From Burkholderiales bacterium (GTDB taxonomy: Bacteria > Pseudomonadota > Gammaproteobacteria > Burkholderiales > Ga0077523): 43,176 nt of DNA. This document shows, in pieces, positions 32,467 to 43,170 of the stretch; positions within the stretch are counted from its first letter, which is position 1; each line of letters begins with the position of its first letter. Both the position numbers and the translations under genes were made by a program. The stretch covers positions 1 to 43,176 of the forward strand of contig JBILUV010000001.1 of the NCBI GenBank assembly GCA_044370825.1. The letters run 5' to 3'. The notes beneath the pieces are model-generated. The model worked only from the letters and a program-made list of their open reading frames with translations. It was not told the origin of the DNA and ran no database searches.

Positions 32467-33207
32467 ATGCCCGATCCCGTCGTCCTCGTCACCGGAGGTG
32501 CCCGCCGCGTCGGCGCCGCCATCGGGCGCATGCTGCACGGGTGGGGCGCCCGCGTGATGATTCATTTCCACTCTTCGGAGGCGGCTGCGCGGGACCTCCA
32601 GGCAGAGCTCGAGGCCGTTCGTCCCGGTTCAGCGGCCGTCGTCCGTGGTGACCTGCTCGACGTGCCGGGTCTGTCGCGGCTGGTGAGCGAGACCGTGGAG
32701 CGGTTCGGGCGCCTCGACGTGCTGGTCAACAATGCCTCCAGTTTCTTCCCTACGCCCGTGGGTGGCATATCCGGTTCGCACTGGGACGATCTGGTGGGCA
32801 CCAACCTGAAGGCGCCGCTCTTTCTGTCACAGGCCGCAGCCCCCCATCTGCGCGCGGCTGGCGGTTGCATCGTCAACATCGTCGACATCCACGTCGATCG
32901 TCCGATGCAGGGGCACCTCGTATACAACGCCGCCAAGGGCGGACTGGTGGCGCTCACGCGCTCGCTCGCGCGAGAACTCGGCCCCGAGGTCCGCGTCAAC
33001 GGTGTCGCACCCGGGCCCATTCTCTGGCCCGACGACGAGGTCTGGTCGGACGAGCAGGAGCGCCGCCGGATCATCGACACCACTTTGCTCAAGCGTTGCG
33101 GCGAGCCTGACGACATCGCCAGAACCGTGCGCTTCCTGGTCGGCGATGCTCCCTACATCACCGGGCAGGTCATCGCCGTGGATGGCGGCCGCAGCGTCCA
33201 TTTGTGA
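32467..33207 (+). CDS. Short-chain dehydrogenase, pteridine reductase (FolM/PTR1)-like
   Basis: [12 protein letters not shown] Rossmann motif, NNAS, YNAAKGG catalytic motif, and [12 protein letters not shown], typical of pteridine reductases. The start is either ATG 32467 or ATG 32446. Confidence 0.8.
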
Positions 33208-33215
33208 GGTTTCTC

Positions 33216-34118
33216 ATGCAGCAGCAGCACCCTCCCGTCACCTCCAGGAAGGAAGTCCTGGAGGGCAACAAGCTCGCCAAGCGCCTCAGGCGTCAGGTGG
33301 GGGAAGCCATCGTCGACTACCGCATGATCGAGCAGGGCGATCGTGTCATGGTCTGCCTGTCCGGTGGCAAGGACAGCTACGGCCTGCTCGATGTCCTGCT
33401 GTCCCTGCGGGGACGAGCGCCCGTCGACTTCGAGGTCGTCGCCATGCATCTGGACCAGGCTCATCCTGGCTATCCTGCCGACGTGCTGCCCGATTACCTG
33501 CGGGCGCGCGGGGTCAGCTTCCACATCGAGCGCCAGGACACCTACAGCATCGTCAAGCGGGTGATCCCGGAGGGCAGCACCATGTGCTCGCTCTGCTCCA
33601 GACTGCGTCGGGGCGTGATCTACCGGGTGGCGACCGAACTCGGTGCCACCAAGATCGCCCTGGGTCATCATCGGGAGGACATGCTGGAGACGCTGCTGCT
33701 CAACATGTTCCATGGCGGCAAGCTAAAGGGCATGCCGCCCAAGCTGGTGTCTGACGATGGACGCCACACCGTCATCAGACCCCTTGCCTATTGCGCCGAG
33801 AAGGATCTGGCGGCATACGCGGATCTTCGGCAGTTCCCCATCATCCCCTGCGATCTGTGCGGTTCGCAGGACAACCTGCAGCGCAAGCAGATCAAGCAGA
33901 TGCTGGCCGAGTGGGACAGGCGCTTCCCCGGACGCATAGAGACCATGTTCCGCAGCCTGCAGAACGTGGTCCCCTCCCACCTGGCCGATGGGCGGCTGTT
34001 CGACTTCGTCTCGCTGAAGCCCAGCGGAGTTGCCGATCCGGACGGTGACACCGTGTTCGATGATGCCGGGGTGACGTCGCCCGCACCGGCCTCCGTTTTC
34101 AAGGTCGTGACTGCCTGA
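33216..34118 (+). CDS. ttcA: tRNA 2-thiocytidine(32) synthetase
   Basis: PP-loop CLSGGKDS, Cys motifs ([17 protein letters not shown]) and TtcA-like sequence throughout. ATG 33216 is preceded by GAGG. Confidence 0.93.
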
Positions 34119-34618: not shown

Positions 34619-35620
34619 TCACGCCGGTCGCGGATCGACGGCATGGCATGCGACGCTGCGATCCGTGCCATCGTTCTTCGGAAGAGGGGTCTCCTCGCGA
34701 CAGCGCGCGCTTGCCAAATGGCAGCGCGGGTGGAAGCTGCATCCTGATGGCCGGTCGATGGGGCTGGGGATTTCTCCGGTCAAGATCGGTGCAGGACGCT
34801 CCCGAACCTCGAGGTCGGGCACTGCCGCGAGCAACATGCGGGTGTAGGGGTGCGCCGGCTGTGCCAGCACCTCGGTGGTCGGTCCCGATTCGACCAGGCG
34901 GCCGAGGTACATCACGCCGACGCGATGCGCCACGTGTTCCACCACCGCGAGATTGTGGGAGATGAACAGGTAGGCCAGACCGAGACTGGCCTGCAGATCA
35001 CCCATCAGGTTGAGCACCTGGGCCTGCACCGAGACGTCCAGCGCCGAAGTGGGCTCGTCGCAGACGATGAAGGCAGGCGAGGAAGACAGTGCGCGGGCGA
35101 TCGAGATGCGCTGGCGCTGTCCCCCGGAGAATTCGTGCGGAAACCTCCCGGCGTCCGTCGGCGACAACCCCACCTGCGACAGGAGTGACTCGACGCGCTC
35201 GCGGGTTTCCCGACGATTGCCCGTCAGGCCATGGGCCCGCAAGGGCTCGGCCACGATGTCCGCTACCCGCCAGCGGGGATTGAGGCTCGCCTGAGGGTCC
35301 TGAAAAATCATCTGCAGTCTTTGGCGGACGCCGGCGGCTCGCACCGCCGACCGGTCGTGCAGGTCCACACCGTCGAAGTGGACCGACCCTCGCGACGGCG
35401 GATAGAGGCCGACCGCCAGCCGCGCCACTGTCGACTTGCCGCAGCCGGACTCTCCCACCAGCGCAACTGTCTCGCCCGCCCGGACCTCCAGGCTGAAATC
35501 ATCCACGGCGACGAGGCGTTGTCGCGGCAGGCGAGACACAACCCGGTCGAGCCAGGGCCGGGAGACGTCGAAGTCCCGGCCCACGGCGTCCATCTGCAAC
35601 AGGGTGCGCGCCTCAGGCAT
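34619..35620 (-). CDS. Dipeptide/oligopeptide ABC transporter ATP-binding protein (DppF/OppF-like)
   Basis: Walker A GESGCGKST, signature FSGGQRQR, Walker B IVCDEPTSALD, and a C-terminal oligopeptide-transporter Cys-containing extension. ATG 35620 overlaps the upstream stop (ATGCCTGA). Confidence 0.88.
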   Translation of the reverse strand: MPEARTLLQMDAVGRDFDVSRPWLDRVVSRLPRQRLVAVDDFSLEVRAGETVALVGESGCGKSTVARLAVGLYPPSRGSVHFDGVDLHDRSAVRAAGVRQRLQMIFQDPQASLNPRWRVADIVAEPLRAHGLTGNRRETRERVESLLSQVGLSPTDAGRFPHEFSGGQRQRISIARALSSSPAFIVCDEPTSALDVSVQAQVLNLMGDLQASLGLAYLFISHNLAVVEHVAHRVGVMYLGRLVESGPTTEVLAQPAHPYTRMLLAAVPDLEVRERPAPILTGEIPSPIDRPSGCSFHPRCHLASARCREETPLPKNDGTDRSVACHAVDPRPA

Positions 35621-36593
35621 CGCCGGGCTCCGCGTACAGCCAGCAGGACACGGAATGTTCCATCGCGCCAGCCTCCGGTGGCCGCTCCCAATCACACGGA
35701 TCGAAGCGGCGCGGGCAGCGCGGATGGAAGGCGCAGCCGGGAGGTATGGATTCCAGCCCAGGCATGGCGCCGTCGATCTGGCTCAGTCTGGCGCGTCGCG
35801 CTCCCAGTCTGGGGATCGCTCCCATCAGACCGGTGGTGTAGGGATGAAGGGGGGCGTGGACCACCTCGTGCACAGGCCCGATCTCGACCAGCCGCCCGGC
35901 GTACATCACGGCCACCCGGTCCGCGGTGCCGGCGATCACACCCATGTCGTGCGTGATCAGCATCACCGCCGTTCCGCGCTCGCGCGCGAGTCGCCTGAGC
36001 AGTTCCACGATCTGGGCCTGGGTGGATACATCCAGCGCGGTGGTGGGCTCATCGGCGATGATCAGTTGGGGATCGGCACACAGCGCCAGTGCGATCACCA
36101 CCCTCTGACGCAGGCCGCCGGAGAGCTGGTGCGGGTACTGTTCGACCCGGCGTTCCGGAGCCGGGATGCCGACCTCGGTGAGCAGCTCGACCGCGCGGTT
36201 CCGCGCCTGCTGCCGGCTCATCGGCAGGTGGGCGAGCATGGTCTCGCTCAGCTGCTGGCCCACTGTGAACAGAGGATCCAGGGCGGTGAGGGGATCCTGG
36301 AAGATGGCGGCGATGCGCCGGCCGCGAAGACGCTGCCACGCCTGCTGCGGCAGGTTGTCGATGCGGTTTCCCTCGAGCCGGATCTGGCCACCGGCGATGC
36401 GGGCGGGCGGTTGCAGGAGTCCGAGCACCGCGGCTCCGGTCACGGACTTGCCGGCACCGGACTCGCCCACCATGCCGAGTATCTCGCCGGGCGCGATGGA
36501 AAACGACACATCGTCGATGGCCACCAGCGGGCCGCCGCGGGTCGCGAACTCGACCCGCAGCCGCTGGACCTCCAGGAGCGGCGCCTCGGTCAC
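35613..36593 (-). CDS. Dipeptide/oligopeptide ABC transporter ATP-binding protein (DppD/OppD-like)
   Basis: Walker A GESGAGKS, signature LSGGLRQR, Walker B IIADEPTTALD. GTG 36593 overlaps the dppC-like stop (GTGA). Confidence 0.88.
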   Translation of the reverse strand: MTEAPLLEVQRLRVEFATRGGPLVAIDDVSFSIAPGEILGMVGESGAGKSVTGAAVLGLLQPPARIAGGQIRLEGNRIDNLPQQAWQRLRGRRIAAIFQDPLTALDPLFTVGQQLSETMLAHLPMSRQQARNRAVELLTEVGIPAPERRVEQYPHQLSGGLRQRVVIALALCADPQLIIADEPTTALDVSTQAQIVELLRRLARERGTAVMLITHDMGVIAGTADRVAVMYAGRLVEIGPVHEVVHAPLHPYTTGLMGAIPRLGARRARLSQIDGAMPGLESIPPGCAFHPRCPRRFDPCDWERPPEAGAMEHSVSCWLYAEPGDA

Positions 36594-37564
36594 CGCGCCC
36601 CCTGGCGCAGACGCGGGTTGAGGGCGTCGCGCAGCCAGTCGCCCAGGAGGTTCACCGACAGCACCAGCAGCACCAGGGCCGTCCCGGGGAACACCGTGAT
36701 CCACCATTCACCGGAGAACAGGAAGTCGTTGCCGATGCGGATCAGGGTACCGAGGGAAGGCGTGGTCACGGGCATGCCGACACCCAGGAAGGACAGGGTG
36801 GCTTCCGTGATGATGGCCGTCGCCAGATGGATGGTCGCGATCACCAGCACCGGCCCGGTGACGTTGGGCAGCAGGTGCAGCAGCATGATCGCCAGCGGGT
36901 GACGACCGATCACCCTGGCAGCCTGGATGTAGTCCTTGTTCTTTTCCACCAATGTGGAGCCGCGCACCGTCCGAGCATACTGGACCCAGCCCGACAGCCC
37001 GATGGCGGCCACCAGCACGGCAAGCGCGAGGCCGCCGCGGGCTGCGTCGGGCAGGATCACCCGCGCCACACCGTCGGCCAGCAATGCGATCAGGATCGCC
37101 GGGAAGGAGAGCTGGATATCGGCCACGCGCATGATCAGGGCGTCTGCCCAGCCGCCGGCATAGCCGGCGACGAGGCCGAGGCTGACGCCGAGCACCATCG
37201 CCAGCAACACGGACGCAACGCCCACCAGCAGGGAGATGCGGGCGCCGTGAAGGATGCCGGACAGGACGTCGCGACCCTGGTCGTCCGTCCCCAGGGGGTA
37301 GGTGATGCGACCCTCGGGCAGCCAGGCCGGTGGTGACAGGCCGTCCATGAGTTCCAGTGCCGCCAGATCGAAGGGATCGTGGGGCGCCAGCCACGGTGCG
37401 AGTGCTGCACCGACCACCAGGGTCAGTGCGACCGCTGCCGCCCCCATCGCGAGGGGCGAATGGCGGAACGACCAGACGAGATCGGACGCCAGCCAGCGTC
37501 CCAGGCGTCCCGGTGATGGTCGCGACGAGGCCTCGGGTCGCGGGTGAGTGGTCCGCGCCGGCAT
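36590..37564 (-). CDS. Dipeptide/oligopeptide ABC transporter permease (DppC/OppC-like)
   Basis: Polytopic ORF with DppC-like motifs (PLGTDDQGRDVLS, the EAA-like loop YIQAARVIG). Confidence 0.86.
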   Translation of the reverse strand: MPARTTHPRPEASSRPSPGRLGRWLASDLVWSFRHSPLAMGAAAVALTLVVGAALAPWLAPHDPFDLAALELMDGLSPPAWLPEGRITYPLGTDDQGRDVLSGILHGARISLLVGVASVLLAMVLGVSLGLVAGYAGGWADALIMRVADIQLSFPAILIALLADGVARVILPDAARGGLALAVLVAAIGLSGWVQYARTVRGSTLVEKNKDYIQAARVIGRHPLAIMLLHLLPNVTGPVLVIATIHLATAIITEATLSFLGVGMPVTTPSLGTLIRIGNDFLFSGEWWITVFPGTALVLLVLSVNLLGDWLRDALNPRLRQGAR

Positions 37565-37572
37565 GGCCGGAC

Positions 37573-39156
37573 TCAGCGCACCATCACCCAGCGCAACGCC
37601 AGGAAGCTGTCGGGCGACTGCACCACCTCGACGTTCTTCCTCATGCCCCAGGTCAGGGGTTGCTGGTGCAGCGGGATATGGCCGACGTCATCCTGATGCA
37701 GCCGGAACGCCTCGGCAATCATGGCATCGCGCTTCGCCGGGTCGTTCTCGGCACCGATGCGCCGGATCAGGTCGTCCAGCCGCGGGTTGGAGTAGCTGCC
37801 GCCGTTAAACTGCCCCTGGCCGCTGTCACCCGGCGTGGCCATCAATGCGAACAGGGCGTTGTGGCTGTCCTGGCTGGTCGGTGTCCAGCCCGCCAGGTAG
37901 AAGGACACGTTGCGCTGCAGGAGTTTGGGAAAGAACTGGGTCTTGGGCTCGGCCACCAGGTTGACCCTCACCCCCACCTTGGCCAGCATCGATGCCACTG
38001 CCTGGCAGATCTCGCTGTCGTTCACATAGCGGTCGTTGGGACAGTGCATCCCGAGATCGAATCCGGAGGCGTAACCCGCTTCTGCCAGCAGCCGGCGCGC
38101 CGCTTCCGGGTCATGGGACAGGCGCTTGTTGAGGCTCTCGACGAACCCGCGAACTGCGGGTGCCACCATCAGCCCAGCGGGCGTGGAGGCACCGCGCATG
38201 ATGCGGCTTCGGATCGCCTCGACATCGATGGCCTGGTAGAGGGCCTGCCGCACCCGCCGGTCCTTCAGCGGGTTGCGGCCCTTGACGCTGGAGAACAGCA
38301 GCTCGTCGCGCTTCTGGTCCATGCCGAGAAATATGGTCCGCATCTCCGGCGACTGCTGGATCTTGAGCGCGGGGTTCGCCCGGACGCGGGGCGCGTCCTG
38401 CAATGGCACCGGATCGACCAGGTCCATCTCGCCGCTGATGAGCGCGGCGACACGGGTGGCGTCGTTGCCGATGGGTGTGAAGGTGGCTTCGGTCAGATTG
38501 TGTTCCGGCTGTCCCCACCAGCCCGGATGCACCGCGAACACCGTGCGCACGCCGGGTTCGCGTGACTTCAGGACGAAGGGGCCAGTCCCGGTGGCATGGG
38601 TGCTGGCGTGGTTCTCGGTACCCTTGCGCACGTCCACCGGCCGTGTCGCGTTGTGACGCTCGCACCACGTCTTCGACATGATGTACCAGCGGCTCATGTT
38701 CTGCGGCAGGATGGAGAACGGCTCGCTGGTGACGATGTCGATGGCGTGCGTGTCCACCTTGCGGATCTCGCGGATCCCCGCCACGTACACGCGCACGTCC
38801 GAGCCTTCGCCCCTCGCCCGCTCGAAGCTGAAGATCACGTCGTCCGCCGTGAACGCGCTGCCGTCGTGGAACTTCACACCTTTGCGCAGGTTGAAGCGCC
38901 ACACCGTGGGCGCCGTCTGCTTCCAGTCGGTCGCGAGTTCCGGCCGCAGCGCGAAGTTGCGGTCGCGCCCGGTGAGGGCCTCGTACACATTGCCCATCAG
39001 GGACAGCAGCACCGCCTCGTTGTGCATGTGGGGATCGACCGACAGCGCATCACCCTGGTTGGCGAAGCGGAAGGTCGCCGCGCCTGCCGGCGGCACCGCG
39101 AGCGCAGCTGCCAGCAGGAGCACCCTGGCGGCGTTCCGGAGCAGCCGGGCGTTCAT
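37573..39156 (-). CDS. ABC transporter substrate-binding protein, family 5 (DppA/OppA-like)
   Basis: Signal peptide (MNARLLRNAARVLLLAAALAVPPAGAA) and an SBP_bac_5-like sequence (WRFNLRKGVKFHDGSAFTADDVIFS). ATG 39156 overlaps the amidohydrolase stop by 1 nt (TGATG). Confidence 0.86.
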   Translation of the reverse strand: MNARLLRNAARVLLLAAALAVPPAGAATFRFANQGDALSVDPHMHNEAVLLSLMGNVYEALTGRDRNFALRPELATDWKQTAPTVWRFNLRKGVKFHDGSAFTADDVIFSFERARGEGSDVRVYVAGIREIRKVDTHAIDIVTSEPFSILPQNMSRWYIMSKTWCERHNATRPVDVRKGTENHASTHATGTGPFVLKSREPGVRTVFAVHPGWWGQPEHNLTEATFTPIGNDATRVAALISGEMDLVDPVPLQDAPRVRANPALKIQQSPEMRTIFLGMDQKRDELLFSSVKGRNPLKDRRVRQALYQAIDVEAIRSRIMRGASTPAGLMVAPAVRGFVESLNKRLSHDPEAARRLLAEAGYASGFDLGMHCPNDRYVNDSEICQAVASMLAKVGVRVNLVAEPKTQFFPKLLQRNVSFYLAGWTPTSQDSHNALFALMATPGDSGQGQFNGGSYSNPRLDDLIRRIGAENDPAKRDAMIAEAFRLHQDDVGHIPLHQQPLTWGMRKNVEVVQSPDSFLALRWVMVR

Positions 39157-40379
39157 CACGCGACCTCCACGGGGTCGGCCCTGGCCTCGTTCCGGTCGCG
39201 CAGCGGCAGTGCCGCCTCCGCCAGCGCGGCCAGATAACCCGCGCCCAGTGGAATGACGCTGTCGTTGAAGTCGTAGCGCGGGTTGTGCAGGAAACATCCG
39301 CCGTCGGCGCCACCCTGGCCGAGGAACACGTAGGCCCCCGGCTTCTCCTGAAGGAAGTAGGCGAAATCCTCCGCGCCCATGGTGGGATCGGCATCGCGGA
39401 TCACGTTGGCGGCGCCGAAGATGGCTTCACCGACGCGCGCCGCGAACTCCGCCTCGCAGGCCGTGTTGACGGTCGCGGGATATCCCCGCGTCACCCTGAC
39501 CTCCGCCGTGGCGCCCAGCGCCATGGCGACACCGTTGGCGATCTCGACGATGCGTCTTTCGGCCAGATCACGTGTCTCCGGGCGGAAGCTGCGCAGCGTC
39601 CCGAGCAGGTGGACGGCGTCGGGAATCACGTTGTGGGCCCCTGTCTGGCTGGTGTGCATGGAGCAGATGCTCACCACCACGGCATCCACGGGGGAGACGT
39701 TGCGACTGGCGATGGTCTGCAGCGCGGTCACCACCTGCGCCGCCGCCACCACAGGATCGACACTCAGGTGGGGCAGCGCGCCGTGTCCGCCCCGACCGCG
39801 GATGACGATCGCCACCTCGTCCGTGGCCGCCATCACCGGGCCGGCACGCACGGCGATGCGGCCTGGCGGCAGCTGCGGCCAGTTGTGCAAGGCGTACACC
39901 TCATCCGCCGGAAAGCGCTCGAACAGGCCTTCCCGCACCATCACCCCACCGCCACCGCCGTGCTCCTCAGCCGGCTGGAAGATGACGTACACGGTGCCAT
40001 CGAAGTTGCGCGTCGCAGCGAGGTACCGCGCTGCGCCGAGCAGCATGGTGGTGTGGCCGTCGTGTCCGCAGGCGTGCATCCGGCCCGCGCTGCGCGAGGC
40101 ATGGGGCCGGTCGTCGGCCTCGTGCATCGGCAGGCAGTCCATGTCTGCGCGCAGGCCGATCTTGCGACCCCGCGTGTCGACGCGTCCCGGGATCACCCCG
40201 ACCACGCCAGTGGTTGCCAGCCCCCGATGGACCTCGATCCCCAGGGCAGTCAACTCGCGCGCGACGATGCCGGCCGTGCGCGCTTCCTCGAATGCCAGCT
40301 CCGGGTGCATGTGGATGTCGCGCCGGATGGCGGTGAGTTCGTCCTGCTGACGGCGGATGTAGGCGACGGGGTCGGCCAT
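39156..40379 (-). CDS. M20D family amidohydrolase (aminoacylase / hippurate hydrolase-like)
   Basis: Motifs HMHPELAFEE, MHACGHDGHT and FQPAEE are typical of M20D N-acyl-amino acid amidohydrolases. ATG 40379 is preceded by GAGGA. Confidence 0.85.
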   Translation of the reverse strand: MADPVAYIRRQQDELTAIRRDIHMHPELAFEEARTAGIVARELTALGIEVHRGLATTGVVGVIPGRVDTRGRKIGLRADMDCLPMHEADDRPHASRSAGRMHACGHDGHTTMLLGAARYLAATRNFDGTVYVIFQPAEEHGGGGGVMVREGLFERFPADEVYALHNWPQLPPGRIAVRAGPVMAATDEVAIVIRGRGGHGALPHLSVDPVVAAAQVVTALQTIASRNVSPVDAVVVSICSMHTSQTGAHNVIPDAVHLLGTLRSFRPETRDLAERRIVEIANGVAMALGATAEVRVTRGYPATVNTACEAEFAARVGEAIFGAANVIRDADPTMGAEDFAYFLQEKPGAYVFLGQGGADGGCFLHNPRYDFNDSVIPLGAGYLAALAEAALPLRDRNEARADPVEVA

Positions 40380-40395
40380 GGTCGGGTTCCTCGTT

Positions 40396-41373
40396 TCAGG
40401 TGGCGGCGCCGCGCGTGCGCAGCCGGGGGTCGACGACATGGTAGAGGAGGTCGACCACAAGGTTGATGATGACGAAGATCAGGGCGATGAGGCACAGATA
40501 GGCGGCCATGACCGGCACGTCGGCGAACATCACCGACTGGATGAACAGCAGACCCATGCCCGGCCACTGGAACACGCTCTCGGTGATGATGGCGAAGGCG
40601 ATGATCGAGCCCAGCTGCAGCCCGGTGACCGTGATGACCGGAACCAGCGTGTTGCGCAGGGCGTGACGCAGCTGGATGGACCGTTCCGGCAGCCCTCGGG
40701 CGCGGGCGAAGCGGATATGGTCGGTCCGCAGCACCTCCAGCATCTCGGCCCGGGTGAGCCGCATGATCAAGGTCATCTGGAACAACCCGAGCGTCACGGC
40801 CGGCAGCACCAGCGCCTTCAGACCGGAGACGGTGAGCAGGCCGGTGCTCCACCCACCGATGAGCACGGTTTCGCCGCGGCCGAACGACGGCAGCCAGCCC
40901 AGGTGCACCGAGAACAGCAGGATGAGAAGGATGCCGATGAGGAAGGTCGGCAGCGACACTCCGGCCAGCGAGACGACCAGGAACATCTGGCTGAGGATGG
41001 ACCGGGGCGCCAGGGCCGTGCGCACGCCCATGGCCACACCCGCCACCAGCGCGAAGGCTGCAGCCATGAAGGACAACTCCAGCGTGGCTGGCAGCCGCTC
41101 GAGAAACAGGGTGGAGACGGGTCGCATCTGTCGCAGCGACATGCCGAACTCTCCGGTGAGCGCACGGGACAGGAAGCGCGCGTACTGAACGTGGAAGGGC
41201 TGGTCCAGCCCGAGGCCGGCGCTCACCGCAGCCCGCTCTTCCGGCGTTGCATCCTGGCCGAGCATGAAGACCACGGGGTCGCCGACGTATCGGAAGAGGG
41301 AGAAAGCAAGCAATGCGACGGTCAGCATGACCGCTGCCGCCTGGATCGAACGCCGGACAGTGAATGCGAGCAT
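40396..41373 (-). CDS. Dipeptide/oligopeptide ABC transporter permease (DppB/OppB-like)
   Basis: Typical N-terminus from ATG 41373 (MLAFTVRRSIQAAAVMLTVALLAFSLFRYVGDPV) and an EAA-like loop (IRFARARGLPE). Confidence 0.85.
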   Translation of the reverse strand: MLAFTVRRSIQAAAVMLTVALLAFSLFRYVGDPVVFMLGQDATPEERAAVSAGLGLDQPFHVQYARFLSRALTGEFGMSLRQMRPVSTLFLERLPATLELSFMAAAFALVAGVAMGVRTALAPRSILSQMFLVVSLAGVSLPTFLIGILLILLFSVHLGWLPSFGRGETVLIGGWSTGLLTVSGLKALVLPAVTLGLFQMTLIMRLTRAEMLEVLRTDHIRFARARGLPERSIQLRHALRNTLVPVITVTGLQLGSIIAFAIITESVFQWPGMGLLFIQSVMFADVPVMAAYLCLIALIFVIINLVVDLLYHVVDPRLRTRGAAT

Positions 41374-41547
41374 GAGTCTGCCGGAGGAGCCCTGCGACCC
41401 CCTGGCGGGTTGGGGCGGAGCGGCGACGGGCAGCATGCCCGGCACCCGCCGCACACTCGGTCGATGGTGCCCATTCCGCTCAGGGGCGTCAACGCGGCAG
41501 GGAGAGGCGGCTGGCAGGTGGGGGAGCGGGCTTGGCGAAAACTTCAG

Positions 41548-41568
41548 TTGTCAAAATTTATTTGATAA
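41548..41568. promoter_or_regulatory. AT-rich divergent promoter region with imperfect palindrome TTGTCAAA-ATTTA-TTTGATAA (candidate operator)
   Basis: It sits in the only conspicuously AT-rich patch of the intergenic region between the dppB-like gene (minus) and the HTH/aminotransferase ORF (plus). The 8-bp arms match at 7 of 8 positions, and it ends about 36 nt upstream of ATG 41605. Confidence 0.4.
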
Positions 41569-41604
41569 GGCAAGCTCCGCACCTTCAACGTCTCCTGCGC
41601 AGCC

Positions 41605-41871
41605 ATGAATTGTGTCGAACGCCTCGTCAGTCTCTTCGGCAGTCAGGCCGAAGTAGCCAGACGCTTCAAGCTCGATCGCGCCGTCGTCAGCAATTGGGTC
41701 AAGTCCGGCTACGTGCCGGCGCGCTGGGCGATGGAGGTCGAGGTGGTCACCGAAGGGCAGATCGCCGCAGTCGAGGTGCTCGACGAAGCCAACAGGCTCC
41801 GCCCGGTCCGGGTCAAGTCCCGCGGCGAGGACGAGATCTTTCACGGAACTTCAATTGCAGGGAGCGACACG
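41605..41871 (+). CDS. Cro/YdaS-like helix-turn-helix ORF segment, in frame with the downstream aminotransferase and lacking its own stop codon
   Basis: FGSQAEVARRFKLDRAVVSNWVKSGYVPARWAMEVEVVTEGQI fits the YdaS/Cro HTH pattern (GxQxxxARxLxVxxxxVxxWxK...PAxxxxxIExxTxG). Third codon positions are G/C-rich through residue ~70 and AT-richer in the ~20-codon linker. No obvious SD precedes ATG 41605. Whether it is translated alone, as a fusion, or not at all is unresolved. Confidence 0.5.
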
Positions 41872-43116
41872 ATGATTTCCTTCGCGCCATCCAAGCGCAT
41901 CCATTCCTTCCATCCCCCGCAACGTACGCTGATGGGGCCTGGGCCCACCGAGATCCACCCGCGGGTGCTCACCACCATGAGCCAACCGGCGATCGGTTAT
42001 CTCGACCCCGTCTTCGTGGAGATGATGGAGGAGCTGAAGGGTCTGCTCAGATACGTCTACCAGACCCGCAATCCCCTCACCTTCCCTGTGTCGGGGCCGG
42101 GCTCCGTCGGCATGGAGTACTGTTTCGTCAACATGGTGGCGCCGGGCGACAAGGTCATCGTCTGCGTGAACGGTGTTTTCGGAGGCCGCATGCTCGAGAA
42201 CGTGGTCCGGTGCGGCGGTATCCCCGTCGTTCTGGAGCATGAATGGGGTACGCCGGTCGACCCCAACCGCGTCGACGAGGCGCTGAGGGTCAATCCTGAA
42301 ACCAAGGTGGTTGCCTTTGTCCACGCCGAGACCTCCACGGGTTGTCTTTCGGACGCGAGGAGCATCATCGAGGTGGCGCATCGCCACGGCGCCCTTACGA
42401 TCATGGACGCGGTGACCTCCTTGGCCGGGGTGCCGGTCTTGCTGGATGCGTGGAATGCCGACGCCGTCTACTCGGCCAGCCAGAAATGCCTGTCGTGCAC
42501 GCCCGGCCTGTCTCCCGTTTCCTTCAGCGATCGCGTGGTGGAACACGTGAAGGCCCGCAAGGACAAGATCCACAGCTGGTTCATGGACATGAATCTGCTA
42601 CTCGGCTACTGGGGCGCGACCACGCGCACCTACCACCACACGGCACCGACGAACTCGCTGTTCGCGTTGCATGAGGCCCTCCTGCTGATCCGCGAGGAGA
42701 CCCTCGAGGACTGCTGGGCGCGGCATCGCCGCCACCACGTCGCCCTCAAGACGGGGCTCGAAGCCATGGGCCTGCATTTCTTGGTGAAGGAAGAGTTCCA
42801 GATCCCGCAGATGAACGCGGTGCGTATCCCCGAGGCCATCGCTCCCAAGGAGGCGGAAGTCCGCAAACGCCTCCTCAACGAGTTCAACCTCGAGATCGGT
42901 GCCGGTCTTGGGCCTCTCGCAGGCAAGATCTGGCGTTTCGGCACCATGGGCTACTCCTGTCGTCCTGAGAACGTGATGCTGTGCCTGTCGGCGCTGGGCT
43001 CCGTGCTTTCCGACATGGGCATGCCGGTGCACGTGGGCGATGCCGAGGGTGCGGCGCATGACGCCTACGCCCAGATGCACAAGGCCGCCGCCCAGCAGAA
43101 GAAACGGGCTGCCTGA
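41872..43116 (+). CDS. Class V aminotransferase, alanine--glyoxylate (AGXT)-like
   Basis: MGPGPTEIHPRVL, HAETSTG, and YSASQKCLSCTPGLSPVSF with the PLP lysine, then FRFGTMGY. ATG 41872 is preceded by GGGAG at 7-nt spacing. The full open frame runs 41605-43116. Confidence 0.88.
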   Translation: MISFAPSKRIHSFHPPQRTLMGPGPTEIHPRVLTTMSQPAIGYLDPVFVEMMEELKGLLRYVYQTRNPLTFPVSGPGSVGMEYCFVNMVAPGDKVIVCVNGVFGGRMLENVVRCGGIPVVLEHEWGTPVDPNRVDEALRVNPETKVVAFVHAETSTGCLSDARSIIEVAHRHGALTIMDAVTSLAGVPVLLDAWNADAVYSASQKCLSCTPGLSPVSFSDRVVEHVKARKDKIHSWFMDMNLLLGYWGATTRTYHHTAPTNSLFALHEALLLIREETLEDCWARHRRHHVALKTGLEAMGLHFLVKEEFQIPQMNAVRIPEAIAPKEAEVRKRLLNEFNLEIGAGLGPLAGKIWRFGTMGYSCRPENVMLCLSALGSVLSDMGMPVHVGDAEGAAHDAYAQMHKAAAQQKKRAA

Positions 43117-43137
43117 GCGAATCCCCGGATACGGCGT

Positions 43138-43170
43138 GAAAACGGCGGGTCAAACCCGCCGTTTTCATTT
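43138..43170 (+). terminator. Rho-independent terminator after the aminotransferase
   Basis: 13-bp perfect stem GAAAACGGCGGGT-CAA-ACCCGCCGTTTTC followed by ATTT, about 20 nt after the stop at 43116. Confidence 0.85.

Follow-up and report, generated by a model that had tools for sequence, protein, structure and literature searches.

Can an open reading frame (ORF) that runs from a phage-type DNA-binding domain straight into a metabolic enzyme be a real gene, and if so, what would its protein do? The question is raised by a 43,176-nucleotide stretch of DNA from a Burkholderiales bacterium (NCBI GenBank assembly GCA_044370825.1, contig JBILUV010000001.1, positions 1 to 43,176 of the forward strand), called the window below. 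Near its end, 503 codons without a stop join a Cro/YdaS-type helix-turn-helix (HTH) domain, through a linker, to a complete class V (AGXT-like) aminotransferase at residues 90-503 (Table 1). A first-pass annotation had reported this continuous frame, and re-reading it bears the report out. The fusion of Cro-type HTH and AGXT is genuine, conserved and under selection. A conserved dyad at its promoter and a conserved internal ribosome-binding site suggest, with a probability of about 0.6, that one mRNA gives both a long isoform that represses its own gene and an abundant short enzyme, making the long form a bifunctional protein of the trigger-enzyme type.

A Cro-aminotransferase fusion kept in frame

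Comparison of domain architectures and of orthologous frames, both proposed by the first-pass annotation, argues for a single protein. In a search over 5.8 billion proteins, the top 120 clusters are all 499-517 aa long, with 77-98% identity and 95-100% coverage, and every one carries both PF15943 and PF00266. A scan with one genome per species yields 586 or more stretches that encode relatives, and the 80 best of these, the loci examined here, align in one piece over residues 1 to ~503 at 75-97% identity. All lie in metagenome-assembled genomes (MAGs), mostly labelled Burkholderiales or Betaproteobacteria; the few other labels are probably mis-assigned. An uninterrupted ORF of 498-510 aa is present in 80/80 of these related species genomes, with no stop between the HTH and enzyme parts. 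An ATG is aligned to residue 1 in 78 of the 80, and a stop codon usually lies just 3-40 nt upstream of it.

Selection on the joined frame is evidenced by pairwise Nei-Gojobori estimates of dN/dS (the ratio of nonsynonymous to synonymous change), with values of 0.19 in the HTH (residues 1-73) and 0.15 in the enzyme against 0.54 in the linker. Purifying selection on the HTH is thus of similar strength to that on the enzyme. Mean synonymous differences (pS) among the fusion genes reach 0.50-0.60, a near-saturated divergence, so the divergences among these genes are old. The linker varies from 13 to 17 aa and comes in 62 distinct sequences, all in frame. The fusion is selected, since the frame is kept across these old divergences, the HTH has a low dN/dS and the linkers all stay in frame. 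Recurrence of the ORF structure together with an upstream palindrome (see below) in 80 other species genomes is far beyond chance. The linker is also AT-richer at third positions, as first noted, with a third-position GC content of 0.62 versus 0.82-0.84.

The fusion is taxonomically narrow, its full-length members all falling within about 75% identity and within a single 50%-identity cluster. Public annotations of these proteins give only 'aminotransferase class V-fold PLP-dependent enzyme' or AGXT/SGAT, and a literature search for YdaS/Cro or any HTH fused to a class V or serine-glyoxylate aminotransferase found no description.

The YdaS/Cro character proposed for the N-terminus is supported by profiles, by sequence matches to solved Cro proteins and by the predicted fold. 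Residues 1-89 alone score above the Pfam cut-offs for both YdaS_toxin (PF15943; 35.9 bits, cut-off 30) and P22_Cro (PF14549; 31.9 bits, cut-off 30.2). In the full 503-aa protein YdaS_toxin remains above its cut-off (31.8 bits) and P22_Cro falls below (27.8). Residues 4-52 (window 41605-41760) also give a sub-threshold match of 28.6-32.4 bits to the NCBIfam model NF046037, 'carph-isopro domain' (cut-off 38), a name for which no paper was found in the literature. The Protein Data Bank sequences matched are Cro of the Xylella prophage Xfaso1 (3bd1, E = 2e-4), the hybrid XPH1 and P22 Cro; PHROG transcription-regulator families are matched as well. An AF2 model of residues 1-76 (predicted local distance difference test, pLDDT, 91) places helices at 3-11, 14-21, 25-34, 39-48 and 55-65. 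With this model Foldseek ranks Xfaso1 Cro first (3bd1, TMt 0.86, root-mean-square deviation 1.4 Å), followed by N15 Cro, including its DNA complex, YdaS and P22 Cro. An all-alpha, five-helix Cro fold is thus predicted for residues 1-73. About 23 HTH residues are invariant, and so is the predicted recognition helix, approximately D24-K33 (D24-R25-A26-V-V-x-N-W31-V-K33).

The origin of this domain is probably a phage. A filter-free search with the HTH alone over 1.84 billion representatives finds 225 relatives. Close matches of odd length (45-276 aa) were considered as stand-alone versions and rejected, the 20-odd that were read being truncated, chimeric or frameshifted copies of the fusion. The next tier consists of free-standing Cro-like proteins of 60-95 aa with 35-48% identity. 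The closest of these (P0172, 81 aa; loci L081-L084, at ~2556-2801 in L081) has its gene ahead of a DnaB_C helicase gene in what resembles a phage early operon, which fits a phage origin of the HTH domain. The enzyme gene thus appears to have captured an entire small phage-type Cro.

A few other proteins carry the domain in repeated form: 2-6 tandem matches to it occur in P0208 (744 aa), P0235 (789 aa), P0258 (2454 aa) and P0266 (1505 aa), and likewise in several proteins of 130-215 aa.

The second part of the protein looks catalytically intact, in agreement with the earlier description of a complete aminotransferase that retains its pyridoxal phosphate (PLP) lysine. Pfam Aminotran_5 (PF00266) covers residues 141-393 with 59.5 bits (cut-off 21.5). 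By sequence the enzyme part matches Nostoc AGXT (1vjo, E = 4e-103), PucG (E = 8e-85) and human AGT end to end; by fold its model reaches TMt 0.85-0.90 to PucG and AGXT and 0.90 to 3isl. The nearest structures are all class V AGXT enzymes. Across 66 aligned family members K294 of the SQK motif, D268, S244/T245 and R444 do not vary; we take K294, D268, S244 and R444 to be the equivalents of K209, D183, S158 and R360 of human AGT. No NCBIfam equivalog assigns a substrate specificity: those for pyridoxamine-pyruvate transaminase, BhcA and PhnW score 127-193 bits, far below their cut-offs of 296-650. The class I/II family Aminotran_1_2 (PF00155) has no match at E <= 1 in the window protein; precomputed domain lists of some relatives give it beside PF00266. 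In the full-length AF2 model residues 67-116, the linker and the N-terminal arm, have pLDDT <50. In AGXT dimers the N-terminal arm packs on the partner subunit.

The promoter dyad and the two probable translation starts

The AT-rich palindrome reported upstream of the gene is TTGTCAAAATTTATTTGATA at 41548-41567. It is its own reverse complement with 1 mismatch, is matched on both strands and is unique in the window. Position counts over the family give a consensus 19-bp dyad, TGTCAAAaTnAtTTTGACA, and in 79 of the 80 loci, as in the window, the form TTGTCAAA-N5-TTTGAYA or TTTGTCA (<=3 mismatches) lies just upstream of the ATG. The remaining upstream sequence of the loci is not alignable. Most motif positions carry 1.1-2.0 bits of information (~0.9 at position 18), the flanks 0.1-0.3. 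Within the dyad, positions 1-7 hardly vary; T10 pairs symmetrically with A12, and a weak preference for A9/T13 shows the same symmetry. Within TTGTCA, the G, T, C and A are invariant in the 80 aligned copies, and the second T is kept in 79.

The dyad is followed by a frequent TG and by a -10 hexamer, (T/C)A(A/G)AnT, exactly 17 nt after TTGTCA; in lineages other than that of the window the hexamer reads TAAAAT, TAGACT or TAATCT. Because of this 17-nt spacing, the left half-site would itself be the -35 hexamer and the right half-site would lie in the spacer. The conserved symmetric positions in the spacer are not needed by RNA polymerase and therefore point to a bound dimer, for which the dyad, in the window TTGTCAAAATTTATTTGATAA, would be the operator.

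Translation appears to begin at two places. At the first ATG, the gap from the end of the -10 hexamer is 5-10 nt in 36 of the 80 loci, for which a leaderless mRNA is predicted; a further 14 loci have 17-19 nt, and 30 have 21-71 nt (28 nt in the window). A good Shine-Dalgarno sequence precedes M1 in no gap class, the mean duplex energy with the anti-Shine-Dalgarno sequence being 0 to -3.3 kcal/mol. The most divergent locus, L077, starts two codons earlier (MASC...).

The second start is the ATG at 41872, codon 90, preceded by GGGAG. Both had been pointed out by the first-pass annotation, which held a long and a short product to be conceivable, and the conservation of these elements backs that proposal. 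All but one of 79 sequences have ATG at codon 90, and the exception has TTG, also a start codon. The Shine-Dalgarno sequence appears as GGGAG, GGAG, GGGAA or GAGAG and is retained despite changes of the encoded residues (G/E/R and S/N/T). Gly86 is encoded by GGG or GGA in 58 of 60 sequences and never by GGC, although elsewhere in the fusion genes GGC makes up 70% of Gly codons and GGG/GGA 18%. Similarly, Ser87 is AGY in 51 of 51 sequences, versus 25% elsewhere. The duplex energy at M90 is -6.5 kcal/mol, compared with -2.1 over all codon positions and -2.0 at other in-frame ATGs, and in 80% of genes M90 is among the top 10% of positions. M90 also aligns with the natural N-terminus of free AGXTs. 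These codon choices indicate that the conserved internal ribosome-binding site is selected at the nucleotide level, and for this reason a 414-aa, enzyme-only product is very likely made alongside the 503-aa form.

A proposed mechanism and its rivals

These elements can be combined into one mechanism. The aminotransferase part would dimerise as AGXT enzymes do and so present two Cro domains, which would bind as a pair to the dyad over the -35 element and spacer of their own promoter and repress transcription. The first ATG, lacking a Shine-Dalgarno sequence and often lying at the predicted transcription start, would give little of the long regulator-enzyme, and the internal start would give free enzyme and most of the enzyme supply. 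DNA binding, repression rather than activation, and the amounts of the two isoforms are what we infer from this arrangement. Mixed long/short dimers with a single HTH, and modulation by PLP or substrate, are plausible additions.

A more far-reaching proposal, put forward tentatively, is that the fusion founds an independently evolved class of PLP-enzyme transcription factor with a scarce long repressor-enzyme and an abundant short enzyme. Since AGXTs are obligate dimers, long/long, long/short and short/short forms would arise, and operator occupancy, hence transcription, would follow the ratio of the isoforms and perhaps also the state of cofactor or substrate. If so, feedback would be built into the enzyme itself, without a separate regulator.

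Several observations weigh against the self-repression mechanism. All carriers of the fusion gene are uncultured MAGs. A consensus promoter scan of the window made no call, and the sub-clade to which the window belongs has a poor -10 hexamer, CAAGCT. Variation of the right half-site (TTTGACA, TTTGTCA, TTTGATA) is not mirrored by any change in the recognition helix. The divergent locus L077 (5870-6000) keeps TTGTCA-17 nt-TACACT and lacks the right half-site, and part of the dyad conservation is plain promoter conservation. Two Cro domains on an AGXT dimer would have to span half-sites 12 bp apart. Finally, in one locus (L058, 6001) residue 1 is encoded by GTG and the -10 hexamer ends 7 nt upstream, a leaderless position from which GTG should translate poorly.

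Some of these points bear on an unlikely alternative in which the fusion is real, the dyad is a mere promoter element or the site of another regulator, and the Cro domain acts on distant genes or tethers the enzyme to DNA. The left half-site is indeed a -35 hexamer, with TG and a -10 element after the motif. No covariation was found between the recognition helix and the right half-site variants; the helix is invariant and accompanies an invariant left half-site. The absence of second copies of the dyad from the window and from 878 kb of the loci counts for an operator of the gene's own, but further sites were sought only ~6 kb to each side of each locus. Upstream of the free-standing Cro relative (L081-L084) the same dyad has no convincing match. 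Against a promoter element alone, conservation extends to T10, A12 and TTTGAYA, which mirror the left half and are not required by RNA polymerase; a sigma-70 promoter has no need of the T10/A12 pair. The dyad also travels with the fusion gene whatever gene stands upstream. Moreover, Cro-family proteins classically bind dyads at their own promoters.

A second alternative, rather improbable, makes the whole protein purely a transcription factor whose aminotransferase domain has become a ligand sensor, as in the MocR family. The likeness is real. MocR, GabR and PdxR also combine an N-terminal DNA-binding domain, a linker and a dimeric PLP fold with two DNA-binding heads; the MocR/GabR sensors also retain the PLP lysine, and the promoter of the regulator itself is usually where, or close to where, the operators are found (PMC5320631, PMC6677901). 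The two architectures differ, however, in both domains, as the first-pass annotation had maintained: a five-helix Cro/YdaS HTH replaces the GntR winged helix, which has no match at E <= 1 in the window protein, and a class V AGXT fold (PF00266) replaces the class I/II, aspartate aminotransferase-like one. Lacking the GntR winged helix and having a class V PLP domain, the fusion is not a MocR member, and its origin appears independent. In addition, the PLP domain here looks like a working enzyme with its own conserved internal start. The linker, of about 16 aa, is presumably shorter than MocR linkers. A selected internal start would yield the enzyme domain alone, without an HTH, which a pure sensor does not explain. 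Against it also stand the 45% identity to Nostoc AGXT (1vjo; over the Foldseek alignment), the invariant catalytic residues and the enzyme dN/dS of 0.15, as well as the position of the gene among housekeeping genes (ttcA, metF, ahcY) with no adjoining target operon.

It is about equally improbable that only one product is made, either the long form, with the internal Shine-Dalgarno sequence a pause site or relic, or the short form, with the N-terminal part of the ORF untranslated. M1 has no Shine-Dalgarno sequence, and gene callers mostly give the long form. In the window protein's 90%-identity cluster one public gene call (P0284) is exactly 414 aa and the others are 503 aa, so that annotation pipelines disagree on the start. 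An untranslated N-terminus is contradicted by the HTH dN/dS of 0.19, the 62 in-frame linkers and the conserved ATG, and a relic by the codon bias at positions 86-87 (58/60 and 51/51) and the ATG or TTG at codon 90 in 79/79 sequences. The last alternative is that the sequence is in error or that a stop codon separating a small regulator gene from an aminotransferase gene was lost very recently, the latter also considered by the first-pass annotation. It is rejected, since the same open frame stands in 80 independent species-level assemblies at 75-97% identity and near-saturated synonymous divergence.

The proposed self-repressing enzyme has precedents for each of its elements. PutA, BirA and NadR are trigger enzymes, single polypeptides that serve metabolism as enzymes and also repress their own operon or a related one. 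The fusion resembles them in joining an enzyme and a putative repressor in one chain, both halves of which are conserved and look functional, and differs in its enzyme class and DNA-binding fold. PutA, BirA and NadR are not known to give an enzyme-only isoform from a conserved internal start. In-frame internal starts that give N-terminally truncated isoforms are known for Tn5 transposase and its inhibitor, ClpB, IF2 and CheA; the short Tn5 form lacks the N-terminal DNA-binding part and can mix in oligomers with the long form. The fusion gene would likewise use two in-frame starts on one mRNA, its short form lacking the DNA-binding domain, but unlike in these four cases the shared part is a metabolic enzyme. 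Residues 1-66 match the Xfaso1, N15 and P22 Cro proteins and E. coli YdaS in sequence and predicted fold, again with a candidate target dyad at a promoter. In contrast to free phage Cro proteins of 60-80 aa, the domain is fused to a chromosomal, housekeeping-type enzyme, from which dimerisation would come. Residues 90-503 in turn align end to end with AGXT and PucG enzymes, yet no solved or named member of the AGXT family has an N-terminal HTH.

Enzyme-regulator fusions show direct feedback from metabolism to transcription. Among PLP enzymes only the MocR family is so far established as an example, and there the enzyme fold became a sensor. In the present case another DNA-binding fold, phage Cro, appears to have been recruited by an enzyme of another PLP class whose catalytic function looks preserved, in a gene that seems built to supply a regulator-enzyme as well as a plain enzyme. 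Confirmation would make it an independent, second way of linking PLP enzymes to the control of transcription, a clean natural example of a core metabolic gene that has domesticated a phage Cro domain, and a compact model for regulation by isoform ratio and for leaderless translation. Consisting of one gene and a single 19-bp site, the system is compact enough to be directly testable in a heterologous host.

Genomic setting and minor features

Next to the fusion gene in the window stands a divergent minus-strand operon that encodes, in order, a DppB-like permease, an M20 peptidase, an SBP_bac_5 binding protein, DppC, DppD and DppF. When the six proteins are compared with the 80 loci by tblastn, L003, the closest relative, is the only one with the operon next to the fusion gene, and L001 has just its M20 gene. 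By contrast, ~40 of the 80 loci have ttcA immediately upstream on the same strand, with a median gap of ~145 nt. Because ttcA is directly upstream elsewhere, the Dpp-type ATP-binding cassette (ABC)/M20 block appears to have been inserted between ttcA and the fusion gene in a lineage-specific event, and the operon is rejected as part of the fusion system. The autoregulatory role proposed by the first-pass annotation consequently stands in part: the conserved dyad over the gene's own promoter supports it at the level of sequence, and the argument from the position beside a divergent operon fails. On the downstream side, opposite-strand genes include metF in 15 loci and ahcY in 12.

Table 1. Features of the fusion locus and its neighbours, in window coordinates
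Feature	Position	Strand	Basis or remark
ttcA	33204-34118	+	window
Six-gene Dpp-type ABC/M20 block	34619-41373	-	between ttcA and the fusion gene
DppB-like permease	40396-41373	-	first gene of the divergent operon next to the fusion gene
Candidate operator, dyad-symmetric TTGTCAAAATTTATTTGATAA	41548..41568	+	overlaps -35 and spacer of own promoter
-35-like hexamer TTGTCA, left half-site of the dyad	41548..41553	+	near-invariant in 80 aligned copies
-10-like hexamer CAAGCT, weak in the window lineage	41571..41576	+	position-specific counts, hexamer lists
Long ORF, Cro-HTH-linker-AGXT fusion	41605..43116	+	503 codons without a stop, 503 aa
Cro/YdaS-type HTH domain, residues 1-73, five helices (predicted)	41605..41823	+	Pfam, PDB sequence matches, AF2, Foldseek, dN/dS
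Linker, residues 74-89, variable, probably disordered	41824..41871	+	lengths and sequences, dN/dS, AF2 pLDDT
Internal Shine-Dalgarno sequence GGGAG	41860..41864	+	7 nt upstream of internal ATG 41872-41874
Short ORF, 414 aa, AGXT-like class V aminotransferase alone, from M90	41872..43116	+	
PLP-binding lysine K294 codon (SQK motif)	42484..42486	+	sequence reading; invariant in 66 aligned members
Terminator-like hairpin 3' of the stop codon	43136..43168	+	15-bp stem, -28.3 kcal/mol, z = -4.55 vs shuffles

An Rfam scan of the intergenic region and fusion gene gave nothing above threshold. A sub-threshold PrrB/RsmZ match at 43002-43169 (+), with 17 bits against a gathering score of 44 and E = 0.4, overlaps the 3' end of the gene and the terminator-like hairpin and is most likely due to chance. 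A scan of third-position conservation for further signals embedded in the coding sequence picked out only Met/Trp-rich stretches. Long ORFs that overlap the real genes, in antisense or in another frame, occur at 40378-41565 (+), 41851-42573 (-), 42598-43080 (-) and elsewhere, and such overlapping frames are typical of high-GC DNA.

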